From an uncultured Oscillospiraceae bacterium (GTDB taxonomy: Bacteria; Bacillota; Clostridia; Oscillospirales; JAAYOS01): a stretch of DNA of 32,000 nt. Both the position numbers and the translations under genes were made by a program. Positions 23,570-23,845 of this stretch are shown here, piece after piece (the stretch's first letter is position 1; each line of letters starts with the position of its first letter). The DNA is taken from the NCBI GenBank assembly GCA_964493515.1, contig CAZBNJ010000010.1, positions 12,352 through 44,351 of the forward strand. Reading direction: 5' to 3'. The notes beneath the pieces are model-generated. The model was not told where the DNA came from. It saw only the letters and a program-made list of their open reading frames with translations, and made no database searches.

Positions 23570-23705
23570 GGAATGCGCGTGTGCGAGGGCATGATGCTAC
23601 AACCCGTGAAGGTGGCGCTGCTGTTTGCTGTTCAGCGGCGGGATGCTGGCCATGCATTTGTGACGACACACCAACGCGAATGATGCCCTCTCACACGCGC
23701 ATTCC
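23570..23705. repeat. Long-stem inverted-repeat unit 1 (26-bp arms, 84-nt interior)
   Basis: 23570-23595 pairs with 23680-23705. 24 of 26 positions are Watson-Crick, with mismatches at 23584/23691 and 23593/23682. Confidence 0.85.
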
Positions 23706-23710
23706 GAACC

Positions 23711-23845
23711 GTGCAATGGGTTGAAATCGGGGTAGCCTATCAGCCTACTGTCCAACCGACTAACCGATCCATTCAAGTCAGATGATGATGCTACATTGAA
23801 AACCTCCAGTTTTCATCAGGCTACCCCGATTTCAACTCATTGCGC
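23711..23845. repeat. Long-stem inverted-repeat unit 2 (28-bp arms, 79-nt interior)
   Basis: 23711-23738 pairs with 23818-23845, with 26 Watson-Crick pairs plus 2 G-T. The core 19 bp (23720-23738 / 23818-23836) is perfect. Confidence 0.85.

Follow-up and report, generated by a model that had tools for sequence, protein, structure and literature searches.

Twin long-stem inverted-repeat units in the early operon of an Oscillospiraceae prophage, best read as a cis-acting hairpin of the early mRNA

The window analysed here, a stretch of 32,000 nucleotides (nt) from contig CAZBNJ010000010.1 of an uncultured Oscillospiraceae bacterium (GCA_964493515.1), carries a prophage, and a 412-nt gap in its rightward early operon holds two adjacent inverted-repeat units, called unit 1 and unit 2 in this text. 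The twin units are a real, statistically strong and sequence-unique structure. They are best read as a cis-acting hairpin of the phage early messenger RNA (mRNA), which is itself a known kind of element. Their structure, position and uniqueness, and the absence of transcription signals of their own, were observed directly. As for function, we tentatively favour, with less than even confidence, the reading that the units are cis-acting double-stranded RNA (dsRNA) stems of the early polycistronic mRNA that serve as RNase III-type processing or stability sites. The gap is composed as follows.

23562-23973, gap of 412 nt with the twin units
23570-23595, + strand, 5' arm of unit 1, GGAATGCGCGTGTGCGAGGGCATGAT, starting 8 nt past the TAA stop codon at 23559-23561
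23596-23679, + strand, interior of unit 1, 84 nt, G+C-rich, folding at chance level on both strands
23680-23705, + strand, 3' arm of unit 1, 24/26 Watson-Crick (WC) pairs with the 5' arm, mismatches C.T and G.G
23711-23738, + strand, 5' arm of unit 2, GTGCAATGGGTTGAAATCGGGGTAGCCT
23739-23817, + strand, interior of unit 2, 79 nt, folding at chance level, with a small hairpin at 23798-23814 (loop CUCCA on the + strand)
23818-23845, + strand, 3' arm of unit 2, 26 WC pairs plus 2 G.U with the 5' arm, the wobbles pairing on the + (sense) strand only
23591-23601 and 23785-23795, + strand, copies of the 11-mer ATGATGCTACA, one in each unit
23846-23973, + strand, A+T-rich leader of the HTH_17 gene, folding less than shuffles do (z +1.6)

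When the sequence was re-read, the coordinates and pair counts of both units, the sizes of their interiors and their 5-nt spacing agreed with those of a preliminary description of this DNA. Unit 1 is 136 bp long and unit 2 is 135 bp long, and the spacer between them reads GAACC. The two units were the top two inverted repeats of the whole window. With up to 3 mismatches allowed, the sole match of each arm in the window was its own partner arm, and neither arm found a match in shuffles of the window. The arm sequences of the two units are unrelated to each other.

The folding energy of the region 23562-23860 (299 nt) was -132.9 kcal/mol (z -9.6) for the + strand and -129.6 kcal/mol (z -6.9) for the - strand, and 0 of 200 shuffles folded as well. 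The energies of the single units were -71.3 (+) versus -66.3 (-) kcal/mol for unit 1 and -60.7 (+) versus -61.1 (-) kcal/mol for unit 2. When the interiors were folded alone, the z values were -0.17 (+) and +0.68 (-) for unit 1, and +0.4 (+) and +0.2 (-) for unit 2. Since the stems hold all the excess stability and the interiors do not differ from shuffles, the feature is the double helix itself. The local stems that the preliminary description had seen in the interiors, including a hairpin with an ACCUCCA loop, did not go beyond chance (interior z -0.2 to +0.7). Furthermore, both stems provide the at least ~20 bp of near-continuous dsRNA that is expected of an RNase III site (24/26 in unit 1; 28/28 in unit 2, including 2 G.U), and the two non-WC positions in unit 2 are both sense-strand G.U. 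The 11-mer was found again at 23591 and 23785. A common word of 11 nt or longer arose between the units in 8 of 2000 shuffles, and the shared 11-mer is mildly unexpected.

No signals for the start or the end of transcription accompany the units. A T-run follows neither unit 1 nor unit 2, no terminator-like site was called in 23562-23973, the loops span 79-84 nt, and the tails read GAACC and AAUAAUUAAUU; the units do not have the makeup of intrinsic terminators, as had been stated. Likewise, no promoter-like site was called in 23562-23973 and no consensus sigma-70 promoter was found in the leader 23846-23973. On an identical contig, L001, no open reading frame (ORF) of the gap was called as a gene. 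A 36-aa ORF at 23573-23683 was considered as a type I toxin and rejected on reading the sequence, having neither proper spacing to a ribosome-binding site (RBS) nor a hydrophobic helix. The small hairpin in unit 2, read on the - strand, contains GGAGG-N6-ATG-TAG (23791-23809), a perfect RBS with a start-stop mini-ORF, which may be coincidence.

The gap is bordered by the following genes of the early operon.

22147-22347, + strand, cro-like small helix-turn-helix (HTH) gene, first gene of the rightward early operon
22387-22884, + strand, HTH regulator of 165 aa, phrog_6499 (E 1.7e-50), weakly CII-like
22899-23561, + strand, ORFan of 220 aa directly upstream of the units, with a weak phrog_9958 match
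23974-24204, + strand, HTH_17 gene (excisionase/AlpA-like, Xis-like), directly downstream of the gap

All genes called from 22147 to 31732 lie on the + strand. The divergent promoter region was located at ~21.4-22.1 kb, and the twin units stand ~1.4 kb into the rightward early operon, past three + strand genes; the earlier placement of the units next to the lysogeny/early boundary was thus not upheld. Since the genes are co-oriented and the gap holds no promoter-like or terminator-like site, the downstream genes probably depend on transcripts that cross the units.

Relatives of the units were sought in several collections. Rfam 15, searched with both strands of 23300-24200 at E up to 10, gave 0 matches, in keeping with the preliminary description, which had recognised no RNA family; at the gathering thresholds, the sole match in the whole window was the tRNA gene at 17908-17993. 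The 412-nt gap had no blastn match, at ~65-70% identity or more, among 50,697 phage records and 72,556 plasmids. Exact arm words of both units were absent from IMG/VR. Those of unit 2 gave 2 single-arm chance matches in the GTDB representatives and 24 single-arm matches in the JGI metagenomes, in neither case with a partner arm; the matching words are probably codons for a GYPDFN-like peptide. The relatives that were reached via the ORFan, the Xis-like gene and the HTH regulator were without the units, and the sole other occurrence of the units was on the 100% identical contig L001 from sample SRR9335148. In all data searched, the units are single-copy and lineage-specific. The single copy therefore argues against an active family of miniature inverted-repeat transposable elements (MITEs).

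Structures analogous to the units were found in related phages. With the phrog_6499 regulator as anchor, ~100 loci were gathered, and 930 kb of fetched loci, including ~160 kb of unrelated control contigs, were scanned for inverted repeats with at least 18/20 WC pairs and a spacer of 30-150 nt. The matches fell only in early regions of phrog_6499 phages, namely the window (two units), locus L015 (two), the L130 group (one) and the L078 group. For the L078 group, this first scan reported a short hairpin of a 5' untranslated region, and a slightly lower score brought out the long unit C2; at the lower score there was also one weaker match in the control locus L040. The units of the window, L015, L130 and L078 are mutually unrelated in sequence, and Rfam returned nothing relevant on the analogous loci. 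In a gap-by-gap survey, a comparably structured gap was found in the L078 lineage only, and a folding survey with 150-nt sliding windows was too noisy for use. The analogous structures are given below.

L015, 2813-2967, L015-B, 155 nt, arms of 42 nt with 35 WC plus 4 G.U pairs, filling the space from the cro-like stop to the regulator start
L015, 2420-2439 and 2543-2562, L015-A, arms pairing 20/20, in the 5' leader of the cro-like gene
L130, 3776-3947, unit of 172 nt between the cro-like gene and the phrog_6499 regulator
L078, 5109-5507, gap of 400 nt with twin long hairpins and a small third hairpin
L078, 5121-5217, C1, 25-bp stem with four G.U
L078, 5227-5377, C2, near-perfect repeat like the units of the window

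L015-B begins 2 nt past the stop codon of the cro-like gene, and unit 1 begins 8 nt past that of the ORFan. An arm of L015-A has a 28-nt, 93% match to the immunity region of the L130 group (3103-3130), and judging from this recurrence L015-A is probably a pair of operator sites, not an RNA stem. The interior of the L130 unit is A+T-rich and contains the promoter-like TTGTTA-16-TATTAA.

The L078 lineage consists of 11 IMG/VR contigs (L078, L079-L082, L084-L086, L089, L090 and L094), and its gap starts ~620 nt after the regulator gene, versus 678 nt in the window. C1 folded with -42.0 kcal/mol on the sense strand versus -18.9 kcal/mol on the antisense strand (z -7.5 versus -1.8). Among the 11 contigs, 27 columns were variable, only 3 of them belonged to the 194 paired columns, and all 3 still pair (binomial P = 8e-5; 2e-3 with indels merged). 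The changes in paired columns were one double change from G-C to A-U and one change from G-C to G-U. The arms in the L078 group were invariant over the 11 contigs, and the flanks and the interior varied. Within the L078 lineage, the twin hairpins behave like a selected RNA structure of the sense strand. Over the long stems of the phage group as a whole, the internal transition-type mismatches comprised 11 sense G.U versus 2 sense A.C (binomial P ~0.011); the count without C1, which had been found by sense-strand folding, was 7 versus 2 (P ~0.09). This bias towards sense G.U is suggestive, not decisive.

We prefer the processing or stability reading because the helix is unbroken and closes an unstructured loop, because it lies between cistrons after a stop codon and has no transcription signals of its own, and because its positional analogue in the L078 lineage behaves as an RNA structure selected on the sense strand. 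Transcription that starts at the early promoter ahead of the cro-like gene and reads through would cover the units on the + strand. Each unit would then fold to an almost unbroken stem of 26-28 bp around an unstructured loop of ~80 nt. Since stems of this length lie in the range of bacterial RNase III substrates, putative cleavage, or the stable hairpin itself, may split the cistrons into an immediate-early side (cro-like gene, CII-like HTH regulator and ORFan) and a downstream side (Xis-like, recombination and replication genes). This would leave the upstream message with a hairpin that protects its 3' end and the downstream message with a new 5' end, and would give the two messages different stability and expression. 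The early R sites of T7, lambda sib and co-transcribed Correia elements act in this manner and are the closest precedents. The preliminary description had proposed a pair of structured or processed RNAs. This proposal is retained for the long closing stems, in view of the co-oriented operon, the sense G.U pairs and the sense-specific analogues; it is not supported for two non-coding RNAs with meaningful interiors, as the interiors are shuffle-like and have no promoter or terminator of their own.

Several points weigh against the processing or stability reading. The near-perfect arms fold about equally on both strands, as DNA-level repeats also would. The sole mismatch of the L130 unit is a sense-strand A.C, and the bias towards G.U becomes weak when the discovery bias is removed. 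The column statistic of the L078 lineage uses a structure predicted from one aligned sequence, and linked haplotypes. Since the units of the window have no homologue, a covariation test is impossible on them, and their likeness to the L078 hairpins is one of position and architecture, not of homology. Moreover, RNase III recognition is not predictable for a Clostridia-like host.

It is also conceivable, but in our judgement unlikely, that the units are DNA-level foldback elements, either two MITE-like insertions or in-situ inverted duplications, which were since co-opted or have no function. In their terminal inverted repeats (26-28 bp), their lengths (135-136 bp) and their non-coding, unstructured interiors, the units have the dimensions of a classic MITE, and their arms are near-perfect in the way of young repeats. 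Since the region is absent from all of the related phages, the units are an accessory insertion relative to them. The two-unit block has AATA immediately outside each end (23566-23569 and 23846-23849), which could be the duplication of a composite insertion, for which 4 nt is weak evidence. However, neither unit had a second copy in the window, the phages, the plasmids or IMG/VR, and the matches of unit 2 in the GTDB representatives and the JGI metagenomes were single-arm chance matches only. No target-site duplication or other direct repeat surrounds either unit (flanks ...CAATA / GAACC for unit 1 and GAACC / AATAA for unit 2), and the outermost ends of the two-unit block do not match one another as inverted repeats. 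The pattern in the L078 group, invariant arms with variable flanks and interior, also speaks against foldback elements. What survives of the earlier suggestion of MITE-like insertions is the architecture; a second copy and a duplication per unit were not found.

A third explanation, the main rival among the functional readings, though we consider it rather improbable, is a processive antitermination RNA like Tn916 canT, pLS20 conAn2, HK022 put and Bacillus EAR, that is, a leader that would modify RNA polymerase to read through the terminators of a long early or late operon. The layout resembles that of Tn916, in which regulators are followed by the non-coding canT and then by an HTH_17 xis, and the canT region is also strongly structured (z -5.9); in the window, the 412-nt gap lies between the ORFan and the HTH_17 gene and is followed by 8 kb or more of genes in the same orientation. 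The parallel in pLS20 is conAn2, an intergenic RNA with 20-bp inverted repeats that comes after a poorly conserved protein. Nevertheless, no sequence or Rfam similarity to known antiterminator RNAs was found, and PF17362 matched none of the ORFan, the HTH regulator and the cro-like protein at E up to 10. On the + strand of 23974-32000, an operon part that runs on past the window, there were only weak terminator candidates of 5-6 bp, no more than in shuffles. Known antiterminator RNAs need specific internal folds, and the interiors of the units are unstructured; the flanking 20-bp repeats of pLS20 are dispensable.

A broader claim can be made of the same data, and we hold it to be doubtful: that long-stem, large-loop hairpins, often paired, form a recurrent class of cis-RNA in the early operons of phrog_6499 Clostridia phages, conserved in architecture and not in sequence. 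Such a class might act as an RNA antiterminator or insulator, or as a cassette that releases a small RNA, and the units of the window would be its most extreme near-perfect example.

We regard it as very unlikely that the units are precursors of one or two small trans-acting RNAs, in which RNase III would cut in the stems and free interiors of ~80-100 nt, and in which the CUCCA loop could pair with a Shine-Dalgarno sequence. A long closing stem around a loop does resemble excision of the rRNA type, an 11-mer common to both units is unlikely by chance (8/2000), and an anti-Shine-Dalgarno-like loop is present at 23798-23814. However, the interiors have no structure beyond chance, no conservation in anything searched and no promoter or terminator of their own, and within the window the interiors have only two antisense matches, each exact over 10 nt and away from start sites. 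Invertible DNA segments flipped by a recombinase (invertons) are a most improbable explanation: inverted repeats of 26-28 bp do bracket short segments, the gene of a tyrosine recombinase lies at a distance of 4.4 kb and the analogous L130 unit encloses its promoter-like TTGTTA-16-TATTAA, but neither interior of the window's units has a promoter-like site, the orientation was the same in two independent assemblies, in 4/4 L130-group contigs and in 11/11 L078-group contigs for C2, and ~80 bp is a very short segment for synapsis. Neither the small-RNA nor the inverton reading has positive support. An integron attC site was also considered and rejected on reading the sequence, the core-site orientation being reversed relative to R''...R' and an integron integrase being absent.

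The remaining features of the prophage are listed below.

17908-17993, tRNA gene, Rfam gathering-threshold match
18132-19169, - strand, tyrosine integrase
19857-20288, - strand, M78 peptidase
21124-21423, - strand, HTH_3 repressor-like protein
24221-24607, + strand, DUF3846
25867-27912, + strand, SbcC-like ATPase
27931-29019, + strand, RecT
29022-29720, + strand, metallo-beta-lactamase-fold protein
30130-31068, + strand, DUF1376-like protein with iterons inside
31061-31732, + strand, DnaC-like loader

The tRNA gene is followed by a 19-bp hairpin at 18003-18045 and then by the integrase gene, and the prophage is probably integrated at the 3' end of the tRNA. The - strand genes make up a leftward lysogeny module, beyond which the rightward operon begins. 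The ORFan has Cys/His-rich stretches. Its searches gave only self-matches in 5.8 billion proteins and no homologue at E<=1e-3 in 1.84 billion representative proteins, and its AF2 model was unusable (predicted local distance difference test, pLDDT, 29). The HTH_17 protein has the motif LSIDEASRY, the Tn916 Xis counterpart being LTIEEASKY.

In the leader of the HTH_17 gene, ATTAATTGA is directly repeated at 23850 and 23934 and TTGAATA at 23928 and 23950, a palindrome with the centre AATATT spans 23921-23946, and a Shine-Dalgarno-like AAAGGGG precedes the ATG at 23974. Two 12-mers of this leader (23909-23920 and 23927-23938) recur in interiors of the analogous units (shuffle P ~0.01 and 0.024): TCTGCTGTTAAA is also found in C2 of L078 (~5304-5315) and ATTGAATATTAA in the L130 unit (~3903-3914). 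These shared words may be a common regulator site or a promoter element.

Further downstream, a strong sigma-70-like promoter (TTGACG-17-TATAAT with TG) lies on the - strand at 25257-25229, and within ~30 nt of it follows a strong intrinsic terminator at 25198-25176 on the same strand, formed by GCCGCCACTCTTGCAGTGGCGGC and a T-run. Promoter and terminator run antisense to the early ORF 24929-25273 of the + strand, and the - strand of 25170-25257 is probably a short OOP-like antisense RNA. A like antisense pair is present in L078 (promoter 4802-4774, terminator 4745-4731). Iteron-like repeats (AGCAAAATTCAGAATTT and inverted copies) occupy 30303-30643 within the DUF1376-like ORF, adjoining the DnaC-like gene, and this region is likely the phage replication origin. 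A replication origin at the twin units was rejected, the iterons lying elsewhere; for the DNA-level origin or cruciform that had been suggested for the units, no positive evidence was obtained.

How temperate phages of gut Clostridia time their early genes has hardly been studied. If the units are RNase III or antitermination elements, the stems would mark a checkpoint at which the immunity and regulatory genes give way to the genes of excision, recombination and replication, and the units would be a simple handle on induction control. The weight of the finding would rise if the twin-hairpin gap proves to be a general regulatory module of Clostridia phages; if the units are foldback DNA relics instead, the finding is an ordinary one. 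Long hairpins of unrelated sequence recur at one and the same place of the operon in several lineages, which suggests selection for structure over sequence, and homology-based searches for RNA families are blind to elements that are conserved in structure and not in sequence.

Among known systems, RNase III processing hairpins occur in the polycistronic early mRNAs of phages, such as R0.3-R1.3 of T7, sib and the N-leader of lambda, and those of the B. subtilis phage SP82. The known phage sites are hairpins of 50-70 nt with small internal bubbles, and RNase III processing hairpins are thought to set the relative stability of the flanking cistrons. Like the units, the phage sites are intergenic sense-strand hairpins of early operons, with no U-tract and with a double-stranded stem of at least about two helical turns. 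Unlike these sites, the stem here closes an unstructured loop of ~80 nt, two units stand side by side with 5 nt between them, and the sequences are unrelated.

Correia elements are ~100-160 bp long and have 26-bp terminal inverted repeats, and when they are co-transcribed their hairpins are bound or cleaved by RNase III, altering the expression of neighbouring genes (PMC2649163). Unlike the units, which are single-copy, mutually unrelated and without duplications, Correia elements have many copies per genome, TA duplications and a conserved core. With MITEs of the Correia, ERIC and RUP kind in general, the units share terminal repeats, size and non-coding nature, but not dispersed copies or a duplication per unit.

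In Tn916, orf7 and orf8 are followed by canT, a 452-nt non-coding cis-acting element that acts orientation-dependently, and then by xis, an HTH_17 gene (PMC11658703). Like the gap, canT is a structured non-coding stretch of ~450 nt that leads from regulators to an HTH_17 xis in a mobile element of a Firmicute, with a long operon to follow. Unlike the units, canT has a multi-hairpin fold without near-perfect repeats of 26-28 bp, and the longest word common to both is 8 nt. Tn916 has a known bypassed terminator, whereas none was seen downstream of the units in 23974-32000.

The conAn2 elements, of which pLS20 has one, are intergenic RNAs of 260-600 nt that come after a poorly conserved protein, ConAn1, which carries PF17362 (the pXO2-34 domain); 20-bp inverted repeats flank a central 238 bp in pLS20, and these repeats are dispensable, whereas a GC-rich box and SL1 are essential (PMC8191782). 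The conAn1/conAn2 locus resembles that of the units in its order, a gene for a poorly conserved protein and then an intergenic element at the start of a long operon. At the units' locus, in contrast, PF17362 is absent and no counterpart of the GC-rich box or SL1 was identifiable.

The twin hairpins of the L078 lineage differ from the units in sequence, in their C1, which is imperfect, G.U-rich and sense-only, and in the presence of a small third hairpin. Like the units, however, they belong to the same operon and stand at a similar distance past the regulator, in a gap of ~400 nt with two adjacent long stems, with no Rfam family and no U-tract.

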